The notes beneath the pieces are model-generated. The model searched no databases, was not told the origin of the DNA, and saw only the letters and a list, made by a program, of their open reading frames with translations. Below, one piece after another: positions 32,794 to 44,181 of a DNA stretch of 64,000 bases (the stretch's first letter is position 1; the number at the start of each line of letters is the position of its first letter). The stretch is taken from contig CAZNIV010000003.1 in assembly GCA_964573235.1 (NCBI GenBank), forward strand, positions 1,482 to 65,481, written 5' to 3'. This DNA is from an uncultured Gammaproteobacteria bacterium (GTDB lineage Bacteria > Patescibacteriota > Patescibacteriia > 2-01-FULL-39-33). The translations under genes and the position numbers were made by a program.

Positions 32794-34482
32794 TTATCTA
32801 ATTTTACCATTAATTAGCCCATTTTTATCTAAAGCGGCATCAGTATTAATTGGTTTGGTGCTATAAGTTAAGGTTTCACCAGTAAGGGTGTCTTGGGCGC
32901 TAGCGGTAGTGGTGTTGATGATTTTTCCAACCATTCCGCCTTGGTCGGCAGTAGGAGTAAACTCTACTTCAAAGGCGCAAGCAATGCTAGGATAATTAGC
33001 ACTAGGGGCATTCACGGTATCAACATTCCAAGTGATTAAGTTATTTTTGGTATCGTAATGAACTCCACCATTAGCGGTAGTAGTGTATTGCCCGGTCCAG
33101 CGGACATTTTGACCAAGAGAAGTTTTAACTTGTAAATCTCTTAGATCATTTATATTGCTAGTAACTTGCATGGCTACCCAATAGCGAGTGGCCTCGCCGA
33201 TTTTCGGCGGTAATGGGCCAAAGCCAATTTGGTCACCTTCGGCGGTGAAGTATTTTAGGGTCACTGGCAAGGTCATTAAAGTGTTGATTTTTTGATTGAT
33301 AACATCAGCTGATTGAAAGCCAATATTGCCATCTGGCATAGTGTAATTTAGTTGGGTGGCTATGTTAAGAAAATTATTTTTTTGTTCACCATCCTTAAGA
33401 TTAATAGAAAAGGGAATGACTATAGACGCTTCTGGATTTAGACTGGCTAAGGCTAAAGTATTAGTGCGATCAAATTTAATGTTAGTGTCGCCTAATAGAT
33501 TATCCTCAGTAATATTAAGGGTGATATTTTTGACGGTAAAGTTTTCATGATTAATAATGGTGGCCAAATAAGAATTAACGCCAAAATTGGCATTTGTACT
33601 ATTGGCTTTAATGACTAAATCAATCTTAGATTTTTTAAAATTAATGGTAATGTTATTTTCAGCTAATTGATTTGAGCTATTGTCGGTAGTAATTTGGATC
33701 TTAAAAGAGTTGAGGGTTTTATTAATATTGTTTTTTACAGTTTTGGCAACAATCGTGCCAGTTAAACTTTGCTTAGGGTTTAGGGTAATGTTTTTTATGG
33801 GCAAAGTAGAAGAAGTGATGATTAAATTATTAGATAATAAATTATGACTCAGGGATAAGTTATTAATCGTGTTGTCACTTTTATTTTCAAGCGTAACATA
33901 GAAGGTAACTGGTTGACCGGCAAAAGCCCAGTCGGTAGCCTTTATGGTTAGAGACAATGGAGAGTCGCTGATATTTATTAGCTGGTTAATTTTTTTGGTA
34001 CGCTTGGCAGTATTGCCCTCGGGGATGAAAGTTAGTATTGAGTAAATTTGTTGTTCAGTTTTTGGCATCGCCCAAAACTTGCCGGAAAGGTTAATGGCGC
34101 CCTTGGCATTAATATCTAAGTCACCTAAGTTAAAGGTGATAGTTTTTTGGTCAAATTTTTGACTTGGAGATCCGCCAATTAATTCAAAGCTGTTAGGTAG
34201 ATTAAAAGTTAGTGTGGCTTGATTAAGTTGTTTACCTGATTTATTTTCGTAAGAAAAAATAAGATTAGTAACATCACCAGCAACAGTAGATTGATTTTGA
34301 TTTTCAGCGATTAAATCAATTTTATTTTCAATACGAAAGGCCACTTTATCTAAATGGCTATATAAACTAAGTGCCAATAAAATACCGACTAAAAAAAGCA
34401 AGAAAAAATTAAATACCAATGGGACCTTTTTTGTTTCAAATCGGCTGGCCGCAAAATCTTTTAGGAGTTTTTTTAGTTTCAT
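32794..34482 (-). CDS. surface protein with DUF11-like repeats
   Basis: N-terminal TM helix followed by repeated beta-rich segments that are N/T-rich. Confidence 0.4.
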   Translation of the reverse strand: MKLKKLLKDFAASRFETKKVPLVFNFFLLFLVGILLALSLYSHLDKVAFRIENKIDLIAENQNQSTVAGDVTNLIFSYENKSGKQLNQATLTFNLPNSFELIGGSPSQKFDQKTITFNLGDLDINAKGAINLSGKFWAMPKTEQQIYSILTFIPEGNTAKRTKKINQLINISDSPLSLTIKATDWAFAGQPVTFYVTLENKSDNTINNLSLSHNLLSNNLIITSSTLPIKNITLNPKQSLTGTIVAKTVKNNINKTLNSFKIQITTDNSSNQLAENNITINFKKSKIDLVIKANSTNANFGVNSYLATIINHENFTVKNITLNITEDNLLGDTNIKFDRTNTLALASLNPEASIVIPFSINLKDGEQKNNFLNIATQLNYTMPDGNIGFQSADVINQKINTLMTLPVTLKYFTAEGDQIGFGPLPPKIGEATRYWVAMQVTSNINDLRDLQVKTSLGQNVRWTGQYTTTANGGVHYDTKNNLITWNVDTVNAPSANYPSIACAFEVEFTPTADQGGMVGKIINTTTASAQDTLTGETLTYSTKPINTDAALDKNGLINGKIR

Positions 34483-34485
34483 ATA

Positions 34486-36585
34486 TTATTGGTTATTATT
34501 GATTATGGAGCTGATAGTAAATACGTTACTACTCAAAGCAATAATTTCTTTTTTGCCATCACCGTTTAAATCAGCTACGGTTACGCTGATGCCTTGACGA
34601 TTTTTCGGTACATAAGCCATAAAAGAGGAAAGTTGTTTACCGGTGTTAGAAAATACTTTTATTTCTGGCAAGGCATTGAAGCCGGCGCCAGTAATAATTT
34701 CTGCCCTGCCATCACCATTAACATCGCCAGCGGTTAGATTAACCCCATTGCGTAATTTATTATTATAAGCAAAAAAATCATTTATTAACTTGCCATTAGT
34801 ATCAAAAACTTTAACATGTGGACCGCCTCCATTGCCAGCTCCAGCGATAATTTCTACCTTGTTGTCGTCATTAATATCACCGACAGCGACATTTACTCCT
34901 AGCTTGATAGTTTTATTATTAAAAGCAGAAAACGATTTTGATTCTTGGCCGTACCAATTGAAAATTTTAATAGTATTGCCACCACCATTTTCTGATCCGG
35001 TGATAATTTCTTTTTTGCCATCGCCATTAATATCGGCTACAGCCAAAGAGATGCCATCTTGATATTTTTCACCATAAGGCATGAAGGTGGCAATGTTAAT
35101 TCCAGTTTCGCCAATAACATTAATAGTATTATTAGAAGCGCTAACGGTTTCAATAGTGCCATTATTATTAACATCGGTTTTGATTACTTTGTTGCTACCC
35201 TTTTGGTTTTTGTCGTAAGTAAAAAAACCGGTGCGAATATTATTTCCGGTGCTATCAAAAATTCTGGCGAAGGCGCCATTGATAAATACCGCATCTTTGA
35301 TTTCATTAACCCGACGGAGAAGAATAATGCCATCACGAGAAGCGAGGGTGACTTTGTTTATGATAGAGCCGTCATTAGTAATAGGATCTTGGTTGCCATG
35401 AATTTTTTCATACTCGCCATCAAAATAGGCTTCTTGGGGGTAGTCGGTAGAATTAACTAAAACAATGCCGTTAGTGAAATCGCGTTGCCAGAGACCACTA
35501 GTCATTTCGGGGTTGTTGGGGTTGAGTAAATTTTTTGTTCGTGATTGTGGTTCACCTAGATTAATATCAAATTCATCATACCACCAAAAGTGTTCACGCA
35601 ATTGTGGGCCGTAATCCATGGCATAAAAACCATTAAAGAGTAAGGAAGAGGCTAGAGTAAAACGCATTTTTTGATAGTCTTGGTTATTGGTGTTACCGGT
35701 ATTGCTATCTATTATATTAATGCGAGGCAAATAGCCGTTACCGTCTACTTGCTCATATTTTTTCATAGAACCAAGCCAGTCACCTTCGTATTGTTCCGGA
35801 AACCCTTCAAACATACGACCATTTAAGTATTGATGGTATAAGCCATCGCCATTGCCGACGATTAAATATTTGCTATCAATACGGGTGCGTAGTTTTTTGA
35901 GCAGATCAATATTGCCCTGTTGCCAGAGGCGGTCAATTTTTTCTTTGTTGTCATATATGCCGTCATTATCGATATCAATTTTGGCGTCCACCCAAGAAAC
36001 GGTTTGCCAGATATTATCTAATAATAAGCCATCCCATAAGCCCGTATTTAAAATTTTGTTTTGGTAAAAATCAGCCAAGAAATCGCCGTAAGTTTTATTG
36101 TTTTCATCTTTACTATAAGGATTCATTGAGACATTACCAGTCCACCAGGAAATATTTTTTCCATCAGTGGTTTTTAATTGCCATTGAGTTTTGGCGGCGC
36201 TAGTTAAATCATGCCACAAACCAATACCGCTTGGCTCGACTTCGTTTAGTCGGTATAGTGGTATTTCGTTGGAAGAAGTATAGGCGAGAATGATAATGTT
36301 TTTATTAAGTTGGCGCATTAGCCTGATAGCATCTGCAGAGTCATTTTGAGCTTGCATGCTTAAAGAAACTAAATCATATTTAGCTAGTTTTTTAGCTTCT
36401 TCTAAAGTAACGGGAGTTTTCCAAAACATGTTGGCCACTTTTGGATATTTGCCATCATTTTTTTGAGTCGCATCACCAGTGAAGTCGGGAAAAAATAAAA
36501 CCAAAGCTAAGAAAGCCGAAGCAAGGATGGTAGCCAAGGTGAAATCTAATTTTTGATATTTATTTCTTTTTCTTCTCATAATCAA
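34486..36585 (-). CDS. surface protein: N-terminal hydrolase-like domain plus C-terminal FG-GAP/VCBS repeats
   Basis: N-terminal TM helix. At least five repeats of the form D-x-N-G-D-G-K-x-E-I-I-x-G (FG-GAP). Confidence 0.55.
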   Translation of the reverse strand: MIMRRKRNKYQKLDFTLATILASAFLALVLFFPDFTGDATQKNDGKYPKVANMFWKTPVTLEEAKKLAKYDLVSLSMQAQNDSADAIRLMRQLNKNIIILAYTSSNEIPLYRLNEVEPSGIGLWHDLTSAAKTQWQLKTTDGKNISWWTGNVSMNPYSKDENNKTYGDFLADFYQNKILNTGLWDGLLLDNIWQTVSWVDAKIDIDNDGIYDNKEKIDRLWQQGNIDLLKKLRTRIDSKYLIVGNGDGLYHQYLNGRMFEGFPEQYEGDWLGSMKKYEQVDGNGYLPRINIIDSNTGNTNNQDYQKMRFTLASSLLFNGFYAMDYGPQLREHFWWYDEFDINLGEPQSRTKNLLNPNNPEMTSGLWQRDFTNGIVLVNSTDYPQEAYFDGEYEKIHGNQDPITNDGSIINKVTLASRDGIILLRRVNEIKDAVFINGAFARIFDSTGNNIRTGFFTYDKNQKGSNKVIKTDVNNNGTIETVSASNNTINVIGETGINIATFMPYGEKYQDGISLAVADINGDGKKEIITGSENGGGNTIKIFNWYGQESKSFSAFNNKTIKLGVNVAVGDINDDNKVEIIAGAGNGGGPHVKVFDTNGKLINDFFAYNNKLRNGVNLTAGDVNGDGRAEIITGAGFNALPEIKVFSNTGKQLSSFMAYVPKNRQGISVTVADLNGDGKKEIIALSSNVFTISSIINNNQ

Positions 36586-37753
36586 TTAATGCTTCATATA
36601 TGGCGGATATTTTTTCGTAGTGTTTATTGGCAGAATAATCTAAACTAAAGGCGTAAGCATTTTTACCCATCCTTGTTGTTTCATTTGGGTTGTCTAGTAA
36701 ATATTGTATTTGCTCAGCCAGTTCTTGGTGATTGTCGCTAGTAAAAAGCAAGCCAGTTTGTTGTGGTTGGATTAGGTTGTTAAATGATCCGGCACGGGAA
36801 GCAATGACTGGCTTGCCACAGGCGAAGGTTTCTAGGGCGCCTAAGCCGAAAGTTTCGTGAACCCGAGAAGGAAAAACGGCAAAGTCAGCATTTTGAATAA
36901 AATTAAGCAATTCGTTTTTTTCTTTGCGTCCGATAAAAACCACCTTGTCAGTTAAGTTTAATTTTTTGACTTGATTTTTTAAATTAATTTCTTCTGGCCC
37001 CGAACCAATGATGACTAATTTGTGGTCGGTTTTAATTTGGGCAAAAGCATTAATTAAAACATCGGCACCTTTGCTTTCATCTAAACGGCCAAAGAATAAG
37101 ACATAAGGATAGCCGATAGGCTTGGGTTGAGTTTGATATCTTTCTAAATCGATAAAGTGGGGAATGACAATAATTTTTTGGGCGTCAAAACCATTTTTAA
37201 TTAGTTGTTCTTTGACAAATAGTGAGGGCGCAATAAACATATCTACATAACGGCGATAGATATTAATTTTTTTATGAAAAGCAAATTCTAGTTTTAGCAG
37301 TAGATCCACTAGACGAGAATTTTTAGCGGGTTGATTTTGGCCGATGCGTAAGGTGTAGTCGTGCTTGATTAGTTTAAAGTCATGAACGGTCATTACAATG
37401 GGTAAATTAAATTTTTTGATCGCTGGCAAAATAGAAGGCGATATTTGATGATAAATATTATGAAGATGGATTAAATCTGGGCGCTCTTTTTTAATTAGGG
37501 CGGAAATTTTTCTGGCGGCGCTGAACGACCAAAATAAGCGACCTAGGCGCCAAAAGCTAGACCAGCTAAATTTATCCAATGGTAAGTCGCTAATAAATAA
37601 GTCACTATTTGGGGAGGGGTAGTTTAGGGGGTGTTTTTGGGAGAAAGTTACATTTTTGTGGCCTTTTTTTTCTAATAAATTCATCAATGAAAATAGGTAA
37701 GTTTCGGTACCGCCTTTAGGATAAAAAAATTTGTTTATATGTAATATTTTCAT
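36560..37753 (-). CDS. glycosyltransferase family 4
   Basis: GT-B fold with a conserved E..E C-terminal region (ETFGLGALETFACGKPVI). Confidence 0.8.
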   Translation of the reverse strand: MKILHINKFFYPKGGTETYLFSLMNLLEKKGHKNVTFSQKHPLNYPSPNSDLFISDLPLDKFSWSSFWRLGRLFWSFSAARKISALIKKERPDLIHLHNIYHQISPSILPAIKKFNLPIVMTVHDFKLIKHDYTLRIGQNQPAKNSRLVDLLLKLEFAFHKKINIYRRYVDMFIAPSLFVKEQLIKNGFDAQKIIVIPHFIDLERYQTQPKPIGYPYVLFFGRLDESKGADVLINAFAQIKTDHKLVIIGSGPEEINLKNQVKKLNLTDKVVFIGRKEKNELLNFIQNADFAVFPSRVHETFGLGALETFACGKPVIASRAGSFNNLIQPQQTGLLFTSDNHQELAEQIQYLLDNPNETTRMGKNAYAFSLDYSANKHYEKISAIYEALIDYEKKKK

Positions 37754-37757
37754 ATAT

Positions 37758-39218
37758 TTAATTTTGAATACTATTTTTGTTCACCACGGTGATAGTGCGA
37801 ATTAGACCCAGGATAATCCAGAAAAAAATGCCGGTTAAGTTAGTTTCTAAATAGGGCTGAAAGAAGCTAGCAATAAAAAATAGGACACCAGCGCTAATGA
37901 TTGGTAGGTAGTAAGGGGTTAATTCATGATTGAGATAAATTTGTTTAAAACTAGTAGCTAAAACGGAGATGATAAAAGCAATGAATAAGATAAAACCAAT
38001 TAGGCCGGTTTGAATGAGAATGGCCAACGGGGAATTATGTAGATTGCGTAATTCTTCGTAGTTTTGCCAATCGCCAGTTTGCAAGTTGACACGCTTGCCA
38101 AAGCCGGTGCCAAGCATTGGGTTTTTTAGCCAAGAGTTTAAAGCAATGGTCCACAAGTCTTTGCGCCAAATAGCACTAGCATCTTCTTGTAAATTAACAA
38201 TAGAAGAAGCGCGAGTTACTAGATATTCTCCGGTAGTATTAATATTAGCGCTAAGTTGTTGGCGTGGATACAATGAAGTAATAGTAAGAATGATGGCGAT
38301 GGCGCTAAAAATAATTAAAATATTTTTGGCAGAAAAATTAAGGATTTTCTTTTTTGCTTCTTTGGGAATAATTAAGATTAAAATTACCAGAGCAACAATT
38401 AAGGCTAGCCAGAGATGACGCATTAAAGATACGGCAATGCCAAGTAGCCAAATCCATAAAATTAATCCGGCTATTTGTTGGTTAGCGAATTTTTTAAATG
38501 CCAAAAAGCTTAATAAGATTAAAGAGGAAAGACATAAATAAAAAGCGTGAGTGCCAGCTAGTAAGCGCAGGCCAGTAGTGGATAGGGGAGTAAATTCAGT
38601 CCACAAGCCTTGCCCAGTGATTAAGCCGTAGAGGATAAAAGGAATAATGATTACGCCACCCAAAAGAATTACTTCTATAAGTCGTTTTAAATCTTTGGCT
38701 TTTTGAACTGAATAGATAATTAAAAAGTAGATGGCGGAATAAAAGACATAATTTTTTAAGGTAGAAAAGGCGATATCGACTTGCACATTGTAGTCGGTTA
38801 AGGAACGAATAAAGGTAAATAGATTAATCAATATAAATATAATTAGGAGTGTTTCTGGCCAACCCCAAATGAATTGCACGCGCGCTCTTTTTTGTAGGCG
38901 TAAATGGATTAAAAAACTAATAGCAGTTAAGATAATTAAAATATCCAAGGGATATAGTTTATAGATGGTTTGGTCAATGACTAATGATTGCAAGGTAAAA
39001 TATCGTTCAAAGACCATAGTAAGTAGAATAATCATGTTCAATCCCAATTGTTCGCTGTAGAAAATAAAAGCTAAGCCCGTAATGACAAAAATCGAATACA
39101 GCCAGATATTGGGAGCCAGTATCATTAAGAGGATTAAGATGGCAAAATAAATAAAAGCCAGACTATTGATTAGAATAGTACGGCTTTTGGTATTAGAATT
39201 TTGGTCGATGGCCAGCAT
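37758..39218 (-). CDS. O-antigen ligase / Wzy-like polysaccharide polymerase
   Basis: 486 aa, about 12 TM helices and a large periplasmic loop, typical of the O-antigen ligase family. Confidence 0.55.
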   Translation of the reverse strand: MLAIDQNSNTKSRTILINSLAFIYFAILILLMILAPNIWLYSIFVITGLAFIFYSEQLGLNMIILLTMVFERYFTLQSLVIDQTIYKLYPLDILIILTAISFLIHLRLQKRARVQFIWGWPETLLIIFILINLFTFIRSLTDYNVQVDIAFSTLKNYVFYSAIYFLIIYSVQKAKDLKRLIEVILLGGVIIIPFILYGLITGQGLWTEFTPLSTTGLRLLAGTHAFYLCLSSLILLSFLAFKKFANQQIAGLILWIWLLGIAVSLMRHLWLALIVALVILILIIPKEAKKKILNFSAKNILIIFSAIAIILTITSLYPRQQLSANINTTGEYLVTRASSIVNLQEDASAIWRKDLWTIALNSWLKNPMLGTGFGKRVNLQTGDWQNYEELRNLHNSPLAILIQTGLIGFILFIAFIISVLATSFKQIYLNHELTPYYLPIISAGVLFFIASFFQPYLETNLTGIFFWIILGLIRTITVVNKNSIQN

Positions 39219-39221
39219 AAT

Positions 39222-40079
39222 TTATTTTTGGGATGAATCCTGACTTGGTTCTTCTGGAGTGTAATGAGGAGTAGGGTATTGATATTGATTAAGTAAGTTT
39301 TCGTTAGTAGATTCGGCTAGTAATTCCGACTCAAGAGAGGCTTGATTGTTGTATTGGTTAACTAATTCTTTACGATTGCTAGTAATGGAGAATAGTCTTT
39401 GTTGAGGAAAAATAACGATCAAGGTAAGGCTTAAAAATAACCCAGCCACCAAACCGAGTAAGCTGTTGCGTAATATTTTTGGTTCGGCCCATTTATCGGA
39501 AACAGATGGTTCATTAACAGTGCGAATTAAAACATTACTACCAAAGCCGTGATAGTATTGATGATTATTTTTAATAGTAGTAATAATGGCGTTAATCATT
39601 TTTTCGGCTTGATCGCGATCTGGATGTAAGACAGCCACTTCCATGATGCCGTTGCCATCTTTAATTTTTACGGTTACCATATTTTTCCAATTGTTCAATC
39701 TTTTTTCGTCAGTAGTGCCAAGATTATCAATTAAAGCAGGGTTGGTTTTGTAGACTTGACTAATAAAGGAATTAGAATAAGCTACTTCGCCTAAAATTCC
39801 GGCGATATAGTCAGAAGAGCGGGAGGCGGTGTATGGGTCGATGCTATTCTGATTGAAAACGACAATGATTTTAGAGGTAGCTAGATATTTTGGTGTTTGC
39901 ATAAAGCTTAAAAGTAAGCTTAAGGCACCAAAAAAAAGCGTAATAATTGTTACGGTAATGAGGTTGTGACGATTGAATAAGGTTTGGTTCATAGCTATTT
40001 GGCTAAAATTAGGTTTATTTAAAATATAAATTATCTGTTTAAACTTTTTTATTATAACAAATTTAACATAATTTGTCAA
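39222..40079 (-). CDS. Wzz-like polysaccharide chain-length determinant protein
   Basis: N-terminal TM helix plus a Wzz N-domain-like segment (KYLATSKIIV...), with a C-terminal TM helix. Confidence 0.5.
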   Translation of the reverse strand: MTNYVKFVIIKKFKQIIYILNKPNFSQIAMNQTLFNRHNLITVTIITLFFGALSLLLSFMQTPKYLATSKIIVVFNQNSIDPYTASRSSDYIAGILGEVAYSNSFISQVYKTNPALIDNLGTTDEKRLNNWKNMVTVKIKDGNGIMEVAVLHPDRDQAEKMINAIITTIKNNHQYYHGFGSNVLIRTVNEPSVSDKWAEPKILRNSLLGLVAGLFLSLTLIVIFPQQRLFSITSNRKELVNQYNNQASLESELLAESTNENLLNQYQYPTPHYTPEEPSQDSSQK

Positions 40080-40115
40080 TAGGGGTTAATTTTATTAAAG
40101 ATTTGTATTTAAAAG

Positions 40116-40144
40116 TAGACATTAATGTCAAAAATTATTATAAT
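40116..40144 (+). promoter_or_regulatory. putative sigma70 promoter (TAGACA-17-TATAAT) containing 12-bp palindrome GACATTAATGTC
   Basis: Hexamers sit at 40116-40121 and 40139-40144. The palindrome at 40118-40129 lies in the divergent intergenic region. Confidence 0.4.
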
Positions 40145-40156
40145 GATACCAAATAA

Positions 40157-40537
40157 TTGCCAAATATGATACTTTCTTTTTTGGAGGAGAAAATTAAAAC
40201 CAATCCGGCACGACGGGACAAAGTTATTCTAATCAACGCTTTATTGGCTTTGGTTTTTAATGTAGCCCTATGGGTGTTATTTTTGTATTATTTTCATTCA
40301 GCTAGTGAATATATTGTGTTGAAGTATAATATCTATTTTGGCATCAGTGACTTAGGACTATGGTATTATGTGCTATTTTTGCCCTTAATAGGTTTGTTGG
40401 TTTTGTTGATAAATTATTTTGTGGCTTTGCTTATTTTTTTGCGCAATACTTATTTGAGTTATTTATTATCTTTCAGTTCTAGTATTGTTAATTTATTGTT
40501 ATTAATTGCTGGGTTGTTTTTAATTTATAAAAATTAA
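40157..40537 (+). CDS. small polytopic membrane protein (unknown function)
   Basis: The track start is TTG; an ATG at 40166 is more likely. Three or four TM helices. Confidence 0.5.
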   Translation: MPNMILSFLEEKIKTNPARRDKVILINALLALVFNVALWVLFLYYFHSASEYIVLKYNIYFGISDLGLWYYVLFLPLIGLLVLLINYFVALLIFLRNTYLSYLLSFSSSIVNLLLLIAGLFLIYKN

Positions 40538-40551
40538 TTAGTTATTATATT

Positions 40552-40707
40552 ATGTCTATAGAGTTTTTGGTGGTCAAAGTATTCTTTTTTGCTTTTATTT
40601 CTTTTGTAATTGCTATTTTGTGGACGCCATTATTAACTCATTTTTTGTATAAATATCGCTTGGGACAAAGTTATTCTAATCAACGCTTTATTGGCTTTGG
40701 TTTTTAA
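40552..40707 (+). pseudogene. duplicated 5' fragment of mraY (first 38 codons) fused to 13 out-of-frame codons
   Basis: MSIEFLVVKVFFFAFISFVIAILWTPLLTHFLYKYRLG is identical to the MraY N-terminus, followed by QSYSNQRFIGFGF*. Confidence 0.5.
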
Positions 40708-40984
40708 TGTAGCCCTATGGGTGTTATTTTTGTATTATTTTCATTCAGCTAGTGAATATATTGTGTTGAAGTATAATATCTATTTTGGCATCAGTGACTT
40801 AGGACTATGGTATTATGTGCTATTTTTGCCCTTAATAGGTTTGTTGGTTTTGTTGATAAATTATTTTGTGGCTTTGCTTATTTTTTTGCGCAATACTTAT
40901 TTGAGTTATTTATTATCTTTCAGTTCTAGTATTGTTAATTTATTGTTATTAATTGCTGGGTTGTTTTTAATTTATAAAAATTAA
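40691..40984 (+). pseudogene. N-terminally truncated duplicate of the small membrane protein gene
   Basis: Identical to residues 30-126 of the 40157 ORF. Only a TTG start is available. Confidence 0.45.
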
Positions 40985-40998
40985 TTAGTTATTATATT

Positions 40999-42108
40999 AT
41001 GTCTATAGAGTTTTTGGTGGTCAAAGTATTCTTTTTTGCTTTTATTTCTTTTGTAATTGCTATTTTGTGGACGCCATTATTAACTCATTTTTTGTATAAA
41101 TATCGCTTGGGTAAGCAAATTCGCGCCAGTGAAGATGCGCCAATCTTTGCGCAGTTACATCAAAAAAAATCTGGCACGCCGGTAATGGGTGGTATGTTGG
41201 TATGGGTAACCACCTTGGTATTGGCGTTACTTTTTTGGTTGTTAGGATTTTTATTTAATGGGATGTTTAGCGGTCTTAATTTTTTAAGTCGCGCCCAAAC
41301 CTGGTTACCGCTGGGAGCATTGGTTATTACGGCTTTGGTTGGTATGGTGGATGATTATTTAAATGTGCGTCGTATTGGGCCAAAGGGGGGCGGTTTTTCT
41401 ATGAAGCATCGTTTGATTTTATATACAATCATTGCCATTGTGGTGGCTTGTTGGTTTTACTTTAAGTTAGATTGGGATTTAGTGCGAGTGCCTTTTTTGG
41501 GAGATTTTAATATTGGTTGGTGGTATATTCCATTCGCAGTATTTGTAGTAGTGGCGACCGCCTTTTCGGTTAATGAAACAGATGGCTTAGATGGTTTGGC
41601 TGGTGGCACCTTAATGACTTCTTTTTTGGCGATTGGTGCCATTGCTTTTATCCAGCAGCGTTATGACTTGGCTACTTTTTGTGCTGTAATTGCTGGGTCT
41701 TTATTGGCATTTTTATGGTTTAATATTGCTCCGGCTCGTTTTTTTATGGGTGATACGGGCGCTATGTCTATGGGGGTGGTATTAGCCATTATCGCCCTGC
41801 TAACCAATTCTGTTTTATTGTTGCCAGTTATTGGTTTGGTTTTTGTCTTAGAATCAGTTTCGGTGTTAATCCAAATGATTTCTAAAAAGTTAAGAAAAGG
41901 AAAAAAGATTTTTTTATCTACTCCGATCCATCATCACTTCGAGGCCGTTGGTTGGCCAGAAACTAAAATAGTGATGCGTGCCTGGGTAATATCGATGGTA
42001 GTAGCGGTAGCTGGTTTAGCTTTGTTTTTAACAGATGTTAAAACTAATAAAGATAATCAATATACAACGCAATGCAAAATTTTAGATAATAAATTAGATC
42101 ATAAATAA
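40999..42108 (+). CDS. mraY: phospho-N-acetylmuramoyl-pentapeptide transferase MraY
   Basis: NETDGLDGLAGG and HHHFE motifs, with 10 TM helices. Confidence 0.9.
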   Translation: MSIEFLVVKVFFFAFISFVIAILWTPLLTHFLYKYRLGKQIRASEDAPIFAQLHQKKSGTPVMGGMLVWVTTLVLALLFWLLGFLFNGMFSGLNFLSRAQTWLPLGALVITALVGMVDDYLNVRRIGPKGGGFSMKHRLILYTIIAIVVACWFYFKLDWDLVRVPFLGDFNIGWWYIPFAVFVVVATAFSVNETDGLDGLAGGTLMTSFLAIGAIAFIQQRYDLATFCAVIAGSLLAFLWFNIAPARFFMGDTGAMSMGVVLAIIALLTNSVLLLPVIGLVFVLESVSVLIQMISKKLRKGKKIFLSTPIHHHFEAVGWPETKIVMRAWVISMVVAVAGLALFLTDVKTNKDNQYTTQCKILDNKLDHK

Positions 42109-42110
42109 TT

Positions 42111-42779
42111 ATGACTGAAACGAAAATAACAGTGGGCGGTCAAGTATTTGATCGTTTTCATGTTAAGACTCATGTAGTAATGTTTGGGGATAAAATTGAA
42201 GACGTAGTAGAAAAATATGCTAAGCCAATTTTGCAAGCAAATGATTGGTTGTTTATTAGTGAGAAAGTAGTAGCGGTTACCCAAGGTCGCGCTTATAAAA
42301 TTGTAGATATTAAAGTTTCATTTTTAGCTAATTTTTTAGTGAAGTTTGTTTATAAGTCACCGTATGGTATTGGCTTAGGCCGACCGCAAACAATGCAATT
42401 AGCTATTAACGAAGCGGGGGCTTGGCGTATTTTGTTAGGCGCTTTAGTTTCGGCTATTACTAAACCGTTTGGGGTTCGCGGTATTTTTTATAAAGTAGTG
42501 GGCAAGGGAATTAATGCGATTGATGGCCCATGTGACTATACTCTGCCGCCTTATAATCAATATGCTGTTCTTGGCCCTAAAGACCCGGATAAGGTAGCTG
42601 CTATGCTGGCGGAGAAAAATAATTGCGAAGTGGTGATTGTGGATGCTAATGATTTAGGAGTGGCCATTTTAGGTGCCAGCAAAAATGTTGATCGGAAGTT
42701 AGCAGCGGAAATTTTTCGGGATAATCCATTAGGGCAAACAAATGAACAAACCCCACTTTGTGTAGTGAGAAAAATTTAA
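42111..42779 (+). CDS. CofE-like (F420-0:gamma-glutamyl ligase family) protein
   Basis: VVAVTQGRA and G-rich nucleotide-loop regions are similar to CofE. 222 aa. Confidence 0.55.
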   Translation: MTETKITVGGQVFDRFHVKTHVVMFGDKIEDVVEKYAKPILQANDWLFISEKVVAVTQGRAYKIVDIKVSFLANFLVKFVYKSPYGIGLGRPQTMQLAINEAGAWRILLGALVSAITKPFGVRGIFYKVVGKGINAIDGPCDYTLPPYNQYAVLGPKDPDKVAAMLAEKNNCEVVIVDANDLGVAILGASKNVDRKLAAEIFRDNPLGQTNEQTPLCVVRKI

Positions 42780-42780
42780 T

Positions 42781-44181
42781 ATGGATTTTAAAAATAAAAA
42801 AATAGTGGTTATGGGCTTGGGTCTTTATGCGGATGGCTCAGGTATTTCGGCCACTAAATATTTATTAGCCCAAGGTGCTAATATAGTAGTGACTGATTTA
42901 AAAACGGCTGAACAACTTAAATCGCAATTAGAGCGCTTAGGGGATTTAGTTAATCAGGTAGAATTGGTTTTGGGTCAGCATCGGGAGAGTGATTTTTTGG
43001 ACGCTGATTATATTATTCGTAATCCGGGCGTGCCAAAATCGTCTAGATTTTTGCAGATCGCTAGAGAACATAATATTCCGATTGAATCTGATATTTCTTT
43101 ATCATTTAAGCTTATAAATAAAGATCGTTTGTTGGCGGTAACAGGAACTCGTGGCAAGAGTACAACTACTAGCTTGCTTTATGAGATTATTAAAGCTAAT
43201 GATAAGCGAGCAGTTTTGGGGGGTAATATTACTAAATCGCCGTTAGCCCAAATGTCTGCTGTAAAAAAGGGTGGTCCGGTGGTTTTGGAGTTATCTTCTT
43301 TTTTATTAGAAACTTTGGAGCCGTTTAAAGTGTCTCCGCATGTGGCTGTGTTTACTAATATTTACCCAGATCATTTAAATGCTTATAATAATATTGCTGA
43401 ATATGTGGCAGCTAAAGAAAATATTTGGCGGTGGCAAGAAAAAGATGATTTTGTAATTTTAAATCGTGATAATTCGATTACTAAAGCCATGGGAAAGAGG
43501 GTGGTTAGTCAGCGCTTGTGGTTTTCTCTAAAGTCATTTACTCAAGAGAATGGTGTTTTTGTAAAAAAAGGTAAAATTGTGGCGCGTTTGAACGGGGAGG
43601 AAAAAAATATTTTGGCTGTTAAGCAATTAAAAATGATTGGTGAACATAATGTGGCCAATGCTTGCGCGGCGACGGCAGCCGCCTTGGTTTATGCCGTTCC
43701 TTTGGCAGTTATTAAGGTAGTGTTAAAAAATTTTAAGGGCATTGCTGATCGCTTAGAGTTACTGAAAGAAGTTAGGGGTGTAAAATATTATAACGATACC
43801 ACTTCGACTACACCAGAAGCGGGATTAGTGGCGCTGGATGCTTTTAAAAAATACAAAAAGAAAATCGTGATGATTGCTGGCGGTTCTGATAAGGGGTTAA
43901 ATTTTTCTGAAATTGTTAAAAAAATGAAAAGCCATTGTGAGGCCTTGGTGCTTTTAAATGGCACAGGTACGGTTAGATTATTAGAGACTATTAAACAATC
44001 TAAATTGCGTTGCCCTGTGCTTGTGGTTGATTCTATGTTAGAGGCGGTTAATCAGGCCAGTGGTTTAGTTAAAAAAGGTGGTATTGTTTTATTATCCCCT
44101 TGTTGTGCTAGCTTTGGCATGTTTTCCAATGAGTTTGATCGAGGGGAAAAATATCGCTCAGCGGTGAAAAAAATTAAATGA
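42781..44181 (+). CDS. murD: UDP-N-acetylmuramoylalanine--D-glutamate ligase MurD
   Basis: Mur-ligase P-loop GTRGKSTTTS. Position after mraY supports the call. Confidence 0.85.
   Translation: MDFKNKKIVVMGLGLYADGSGISATKYLLAQGANIVVTDLKTAEQLKSQLERLGDLVNQVELVLGQHRESDFLDADYIIRNPGVPKSSRFLQIAREHNIPIESDISLSFKLINKDRLLAVTGTRGKSTTTSLLYEIIKANDKRAVLGGNITKSPLAQMSAVKKGGPVVLELSSFLLETLEPFKVSPHVAVFTNIYPDHLNAYNNIAEYVAAKENIWRWQEKDDFVILNRDNSITKAMGKRVVSQRLWFSLKSFTQENGVFVKKGKIVARLNGEEKNILAVKQLKMIGEHNVANACAATAAALVYAVPLAVIKVVLKNFKGIADRLELLKEVRGVKYYNDTTSTTPEAGLVALDAFKKYKKKIVMIAGGSDKGLNFSEIVKKMKSHCEALVLLNGTGTVRLLETIKQSKLRCPVLVVDSMLEAVNQASGLVKKGGIVLLSPCCASFGMFSNEFDRGEKYRSAVKKIK

Follow-up and report, generated by a model that had tools for sequence, protein, structure and literature searches.

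An exact 447-bp tandem duplication across the junction of a small membrane-protein gene and mraY, private to one Patescibacteria assembly

Spontaneous tandem duplications arise in Salmonella and E. coli by RecA-independent events at short direct repeats and share a simple architecture: two head-to-tail copies, one novel junction, a direct repeat at the borders, and the retention of an intact copy of every gene (e.g. PMC3411829). Instability is expected of them, and they are usually transient. The verified duplication junctions in Salmonella contain a repeat of at least 11 bp (PMC3411829). Adjacent identical copies can also be generated during sequence assembly. Local errors in metagenome-assembled genomes (MAGs) include sequence duplicated where scaffolds are joined and repeats written in the wrong copy number (Chen et al. 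2020, PMC7111523). Where a scaffold join is at fault, Ns separate the duplicated ends, and a wrong repeat number presupposes a real repeat (PMC7111523). Finally, if a contig has been circularised or rotated and its end overlap left untrimmed, the outcome would be an exact direct repeat whose junction is arbitrary. These overlaps usually equal the assembler k or k-1, or are kilobases long when a long-read assembler has been used.

Here, we describe a locus that shares features with each of these systems. The window, by which we mean the whole 64,000-nucleotide stretch of DNA that was analysed, is part of a Patescibacteria (CPR) genome. The MraY matches listed for it are mostly from Patescibacteria MAGs (for example Uhr-, Buchanan-, Kerfeld- and Falkowbacteria), and the closest among them, in a set of one-genome-per-species GTDB representatives, has 72% amino acid identity. 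Tandem Repeats Finder reported a single array at 40215-41111 with a period of 447, 2.0 copies, 100% matches, 0 indels and a score of 1794. A base-by-base check revealed that 40215-40664 is identical to 40662-41111, a 450-nt exact run at offset 447 that does not extend leftward. A match of this length cannot have arisen by chance. The repeat has the architecture GGG-Y(444)-GGG-Y(444)-GGG, in which the 447-bp unit occurs twice, the copies abut head-to-tail, and there is a single novel junction (Table 1). The exact 447-bp duplication reported in the preliminary description is thus confirmed by both methods, its unit length of 149 codons is correct, and the coordinates that it gave, 40218-40664 and 40665-41111, are one of several equivalent registers of the same array. 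The window holds no other long repeat.

The unit spans codon 18 of a small membrane-protein gene to codon 38 of mraY. Because these two genes lie in different frames, the junction yields a short mraY stub (mraY') together with a small-gene copy that lacks a start, despite the in-phase length of the unit. One intact copy of each gene is left, and since the unit contains only partial genes there is no gain in dosage. The mraY' ORF keeps the native position of mraY, 14 nt after the intact small gene and with the native ATG, and its N-terminus aligns with the TM1 region of solved MraY structures. The preliminary description had correctly recognised this 51-codon fragment, the stop at 40705-40707, the inclusion of the first 38 mraY codons in the unit, and the order of a truncated small gene followed by an intact mraY in copy 2. 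It had assigned the last ~97 codons of the small gene to the unit, where the actual number is 106; the figure of 97 is the length in amino acids from TTG 40691 in copy 2. This TTG is the first possible start of the remnant, which has an in-frame stop 9 codons upstream, and its use would halve TM1. The small gene had been described as encoding 126 amino acids. That length stands as the product of an alternative TTG start at 40157, but the 123-amino acid product listed in Table 1, which is the form called in three other assemblies (L001, L085 and L086, described below), is more likely. The downstream gene is identified as mraY by full-length family and structure matches. The intact protein matches PF00953 (Glycos_transf_4) with an E value of 1.5e-32 (113 bits against a cut-off of 27), and among solved structures it matches PDB 4J72 (E 2.3e-46 over residues 10-342) and 9ZNO (E 5e-48). 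The exact MraY protein of the window is present on three other contigs.

Table 1. Features of the duplicated locus, in coordinates of the window
Feature	Position	Strand	Remarks
Minus-strand promoter-like site	40079-40051	-	TTGACA-17-TATAAT with extended TG; 12/12 matches; sigma-70-like
Promoter-like site	40116-40144	+	TAGACA-17-TATAAT; 11/12 matches; upstream of the small gene/mraY operon, outside the unit
Intact small membrane-protein gene	40166-40537	+	123 aa from ATG 40166; about 3 TM helices
Copy 1 of the 447-bp unit	40215-40661	.	Register ambiguous by 3 nt; 40218-40664 equivalent
mraY' fragment ORF	40552-40707	+	51 aa; MraY residues 1-38 (TM1 region), then 13 out-of-frame residues (QSYSNQRFIGFGF), stop
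Copy 2 of the 447-bp unit	40662-41108	.	Every base identical to copy 1
Novel copy 1/copy 2 junction			...ATCGCTTGGG / ACAAAGTT...
Junction stretch of the duplication			...TAAATATCGCTTGGGACAAAGTTATTC...
Two native unit borders			...CACGACGGGACAAAG... and ...CGCTTGGGTAAGCAAA...
Small-gene remnant	40664-40984	+	Codons 18-123; without the native start and the first 17 codons
Intact mraY	40999-42108	+	Phospho-N-acetylmuramoyl-pentapeptide transferase, 369 aa; behind the start-less remnant, not a translated small gene
Third GGG	41109-41111	.	3-nt microhomology, also at the left border (40215-40217) and the junction (40662-40664)

The repeat lies within a cell envelope gene neighbourhood. The gene order is a Wzy/O-antigen-ligase-like gene and a Wzz-like gene on the minus strand, the divergent promoter-like sites, the small gene, mraY, a CofE/F420-ligase-like gene, and three genes that we take to be murD, ftsW and murG from their position in the cell-wall gene cluster. 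The plus-strand site is the only strong promoter-like site for the small gene/mraY operon, and the 70 nt upstream of the small gene do not differ from those of a relative with 96% identity (L085). No recognisable Shine-Dalgarno motif precedes mraY, and among the 49 ORFs of at least 150 amino acids in the window only four have GGAG, GAGG or AGGA within 20 nt upstream. Judged from these upstream regions, Shine-Dalgarno sites are largely dispensed with in this genome. The idea that the duplication had copied a ribosome-binding site of mraY was therefore not upheld, there being only an A/T-rich upstream context. A duplicated autonomous expression unit was likewise considered and rejected, as the promoter-like site is outside the unit and there is no Shine-Dalgarno site.

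Several additional features of the neighbourhood were observed. The two near-consensus sigma-70-like promoters are arranged back-to-back (40051-40144) in a 170-nt divergent intergenic region, and the plus-strand site implies a very short leader before the ATG of the small gene. The starts of the window ORFs are preceded by A/T-rich sequence that often ends in TAAAT or AATAA. The CofE/F420-0:gamma-glutamyl-ligase-like gene (222 aa, 42111-42779) is located between mraY and murD; its match to PF01996 (E 1.7e-07) is just above the cut-off, and it has no NCBIfam match. In the downstream cell-wall cluster each gene start abuts or overlaps the preceding stop. On the minus strand, the gene for a GHL15/FG-GAP protein of 699 amino acids contains a 91-nt direct repeat (34541-34631 and 35003-35093, 70% identity, 462 nt apart), which reflects FG-GAP-type repeats within this large protein, secreted or located at the surface and encoded beside the glycosyltransferase/Wzy/Wzz cluster. 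GC skew is positive in all 2-kb bins (0.02-0.33), its cumulative curve climbs monotonically, and on the plus strand T exceeds A and G greatly exceeds C. By this measure the whole window (1-64000) is on one replichore, without an origin or a terminus.

The small protein of the window has no Pfam or NCBIfam match, and no solved structure matches it. It belongs to a family for which a full HMMER scan yielded 507 cluster representatives at E <= 1e-3, almost all of them 100-170 amino acids in length. The family alignment contains a conserved core, LHYNIYFGID..G.WY....LP..GL....N, between TM1 and TM2. Eleven of the 44 aligned members match DUF1648 (PF07853; best E 4.3e-07), whereas the window protein itself does not. 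A profile search detected the family in 69 of 80 related loci (L004-L083), in 68 of which the gene is directly upstream of mraY. With starts chosen heuristically, 48 of 60 loci have a gap of -11 to +20 nt between the stop of the small gene and the start of mraY. Between the window and L085, 23 of the 372 nt of the small gene differ; all of these differences are synonymous and the proteins are identical. The comparison points to an uncharacterised membrane protein that is strongly constrained, linked to mraY and under strong purifying selection, and makes it a candidate MraY-associated factor.

The preliminary description had proposed comparison with sibling genomes, and this comparison proved informative. 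Contigs from the same or nearly the same strain in other datasets were retrieved by exact-protein look-ups. Three of them contain the unit as a single copy. The first, L086 (NCBI MAG GCA_037133135.1, JBAXOS010000012.1, 8,542 bp), corresponds to window 33901-42889 and, with one unit removed from the window, has 2 mismatches in 8,542 nt. The second, L001 (ENA ERZ27300010, MEGAHIT k141, 4,001 bp), has 1 mismatch in 3,758 nt, and the third is the 96%-identical L085 (Logan SRR14578347, 1,245 bp). Four shorter contigs, each 100% identical to the window, cross a unit border unbroken. L002 (JGI 3300021520, 1,972 bp) and L003 (ENA ERZ27300065, 1,431 bp) begin inside the unit and run across its end into mraY, and L089 (JGI 3300021520, 1,496 bp) and L090 (Logan SRR7053533, 1,486 bp) cross the left border and extend to 40316. 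At the one known strain-variable site of the unit, 40456/40903, L001 and L086 have T, whereas the window carries G in each copy. The possibility that two strain haplotypes had been placed in tandem was rejected, as both copies share this allele.

Searches for the duplicated form in other sequences gave the same picture. Neither IMG/VR nor any of the 90 fetched loci contains a 31-mer that spans the junction. A within-unit 26-mer, which catches duplicated and single-copy contigs alike, returned only the already known JGI contig in a metagenome scan. The 51-amino acid mraY' product is on record in no other assembly, and queries with the 106-amino acid and 341-amino acid partial products found no contig on record that starts at a unit border. 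Furthermore, the 80 related loci (~0.88 Mb) contain no comparable repeat, and a recurrent or conserved duplication at the small gene/mraY junction was rejected on these grounds. Because near-identical assemblies are single copy, the junction was found in no other searched sequence and the related loci lack any such repeat, we conclude that the duplication is private to the assembly of the window and not conserved.

The ends of the comparison contigs merit description in their own right. Four contigs, from two or three datasets, end or start inside the unit but away from its borders, at 40316 (L089 and L090), 40328 (L003) and 40446 (L002); these ends look like the effect of a low-coverage, very AT-rich stretch rather than of the duplication. 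At the 5' end of murD, the independent assemblies L086 and L001 both end exactly at 42889, and L002 ends at 42864, which suggests a strain-level branch or another graph obstacle present in several samples. Nucleotides 1-243 of L001 are unrelated to window 38442-38684, within the Wzy/O-antigen-ligase-like gene (37758-39218), and the remainder is 99.95% identical, whereas L086 is colinear throughout. L001 is thus either a chimeric contig or evidence of a strain-variable C-terminal part of the Wzy-like gene.

Could the duplication have been maintained for a function? The 51-amino acid product might modulate MraY, or the repeat might serve as a reversible switch that uncouples mraY translation. 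The mraY' ORF has the complete native upstream context (intact small gene, 14-nt spacer and ATG) and could be translated as well as mraY normally is. In addition, breaking the close juxtaposition of the small gene and mraY seen in most relatives could plausibly change MraY output. On the other hand, the duplication is absent from strains with 99.95-100% identity and from 80 related species, its copies show zero divergence and hence no sign of having been retained, amplification extends to no complete gene, and the peptide ends in a tail that is simply an arbitrary reading in the wrong frame. We therefore regard a retained, functional duplication as very improbable. The 51-amino acid MraY-TM1 micropeptide is a possible by-product, known as a predicted ORF, and it is most unlikely that it acts on MraY or a partner, or that the 447-bp repeat is an on/off switch for the coupling of the small protein to MraY. 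Were either the case, the locus would show that a CPR bacterium naturally carries a fragment of an essential cell-wall enzyme with a dominant-negative or regulatory role.

The preliminary description had framed the zero divergence of the copies as the result of either a very recent duplication or an assembly artefact. This was the right frame, and the absence of the repeat from sibling assemblies fits both alternatives. An assembly or post-assembly artefact, in an organism that is single copy like its siblings, is a serious contender to which we assign rather less than an even chance. It could have arisen if two contigs overlapping by 447 nt were concatenated instead of merged, during scaffolding, contig merging, gap closing or bin re-assembly, or if the assembler followed a spurious loop and so put out an extra repeat. 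The perfectly identical adjacent copies, private to one assembly and absent from its siblings (including a MAG at 99.98% identity), are as in the documented local errors of MAGs (PMC7111523), and neither the junction nor the 51-amino acid ORF was found elsewhere among the searched sequences. Identical copies and absence from independent assemblies are predicted equally by a very young real event. Unlike a scaffold-join error, the locus has no Ns between or near the copies, nor are there any in the entire 64-kb window, and unlike an error in repeat number, it has single-copy siblings and no pre-existing real repeat to miscount. An untrimmed end overlap would give a similar exact repeat, but the unit here is 447 nt long and lies ~40 kb inside the contig.

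The properties of assemblers bear on the same question. A length of 447 corresponds to no usual k-mer overlap (k or k-1) of assemblers. Plain de Bruijn-graph assemblers cannot write junctions that are absent from the reads, and junction reads would therefore be implied if the contig were the direct output of one of them. Additionally, the repeat is the only one of its kind in 64 kb, which argues against a systematic defect of the contig. The behaviour of independent contigs at the unit borders counts on both sides. None of them starts or ends there, which gives no sign of a locus prone to contig ends at these positions. Equally, a de Bruijn graph would branch at both unit borders if the junction occurred at appreciable frequency, and the lack of any such break, together with the absence of the junction from all six independent contigs from five other datasets, three of which gave contigs 100% identical to the window, weighs against a real event. 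High frequency would also be unexpected for a duplication that breaks the coupling of an essential gene to the partner upstream of it.

The explanation that we favour, with a confidence somewhat above even, is that the tandem duplication is real, arose very recently on an evolutionary scale, and is confined to the strain or population from which this assembly derives. The exact head-to-tail copies, the single novel junction and the 3-nt direct repeat at the ancestral borders are consistent with such an event, as are the ancestral single-copy allele in the near-identical genomes L086 and L001 and in L085, and the lack of any scaffold-join signature. The ancestral order would have been promoter, small 3-TM gene, 14 nt and mraY. 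Two GGG triplets, separated by 447 nt, would then have been the sites of unequal sister-strand exchange or of replication slippage that copied the segment from within the small gene to within mraY, generating the novel junction, the mraY' stub and the start-less small-gene copy and leaving one intact copy per gene, with the intact mraY now separated from a translated small gene. The GGG microhomology is slight evidence for either a real event or an artefact. Identity of at least 3 nt at the junction is found for 8.3% of arbitrary 447-nt segments of the window sequence and is compatible with chance, as an artefact would have it, and the left GGG is GAG in L085.

A young duplication of this kind would resemble the spontaneous RecA-independent duplications of enteric bacteria in its head-to-tail arrangement, single junction, border repeat and intact gene copies. 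It differs from those of Salmonella (PMC3411829) in having only 3 nt of microhomology, far less than the at least 11 bp at their verified junctions, and this difference counts against a real event. In comparison with the spontaneous duplications recovered from selected cultures, its unit is very short, contains no whole gene and has no dosage effect, and it is known from a metagenome-derived consensus. Since most relatives keep the small gene and mraY in close juxtaposition, coupled expression of the pair would probably be disturbed by the duplication, which we infer to be neutral to mildly deleterious and devoid of conserved function. The duplication should be easily lost by homologous recombination between the 447-bp direct repeats.

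The duplication must be read either as a transient structural variant of an ordinary sort or as an error of assembly, and in both cases the kind of event is already known. If real, it captures a passing structural mutation in a population of uncultured CPR bacteria and carries little biological weight. If it is an error, a false 51-amino acid ORF and a pseudogene-like fragment have been placed beside an essential gene in a public MAG, which is worth flagging; in practice the finding serves quality control, by flagging the source assembly. Of greater interest, as a by-product of this analysis, is the conserved pairing of the small-protein gene with mraY in most sampled Patescibacteria.
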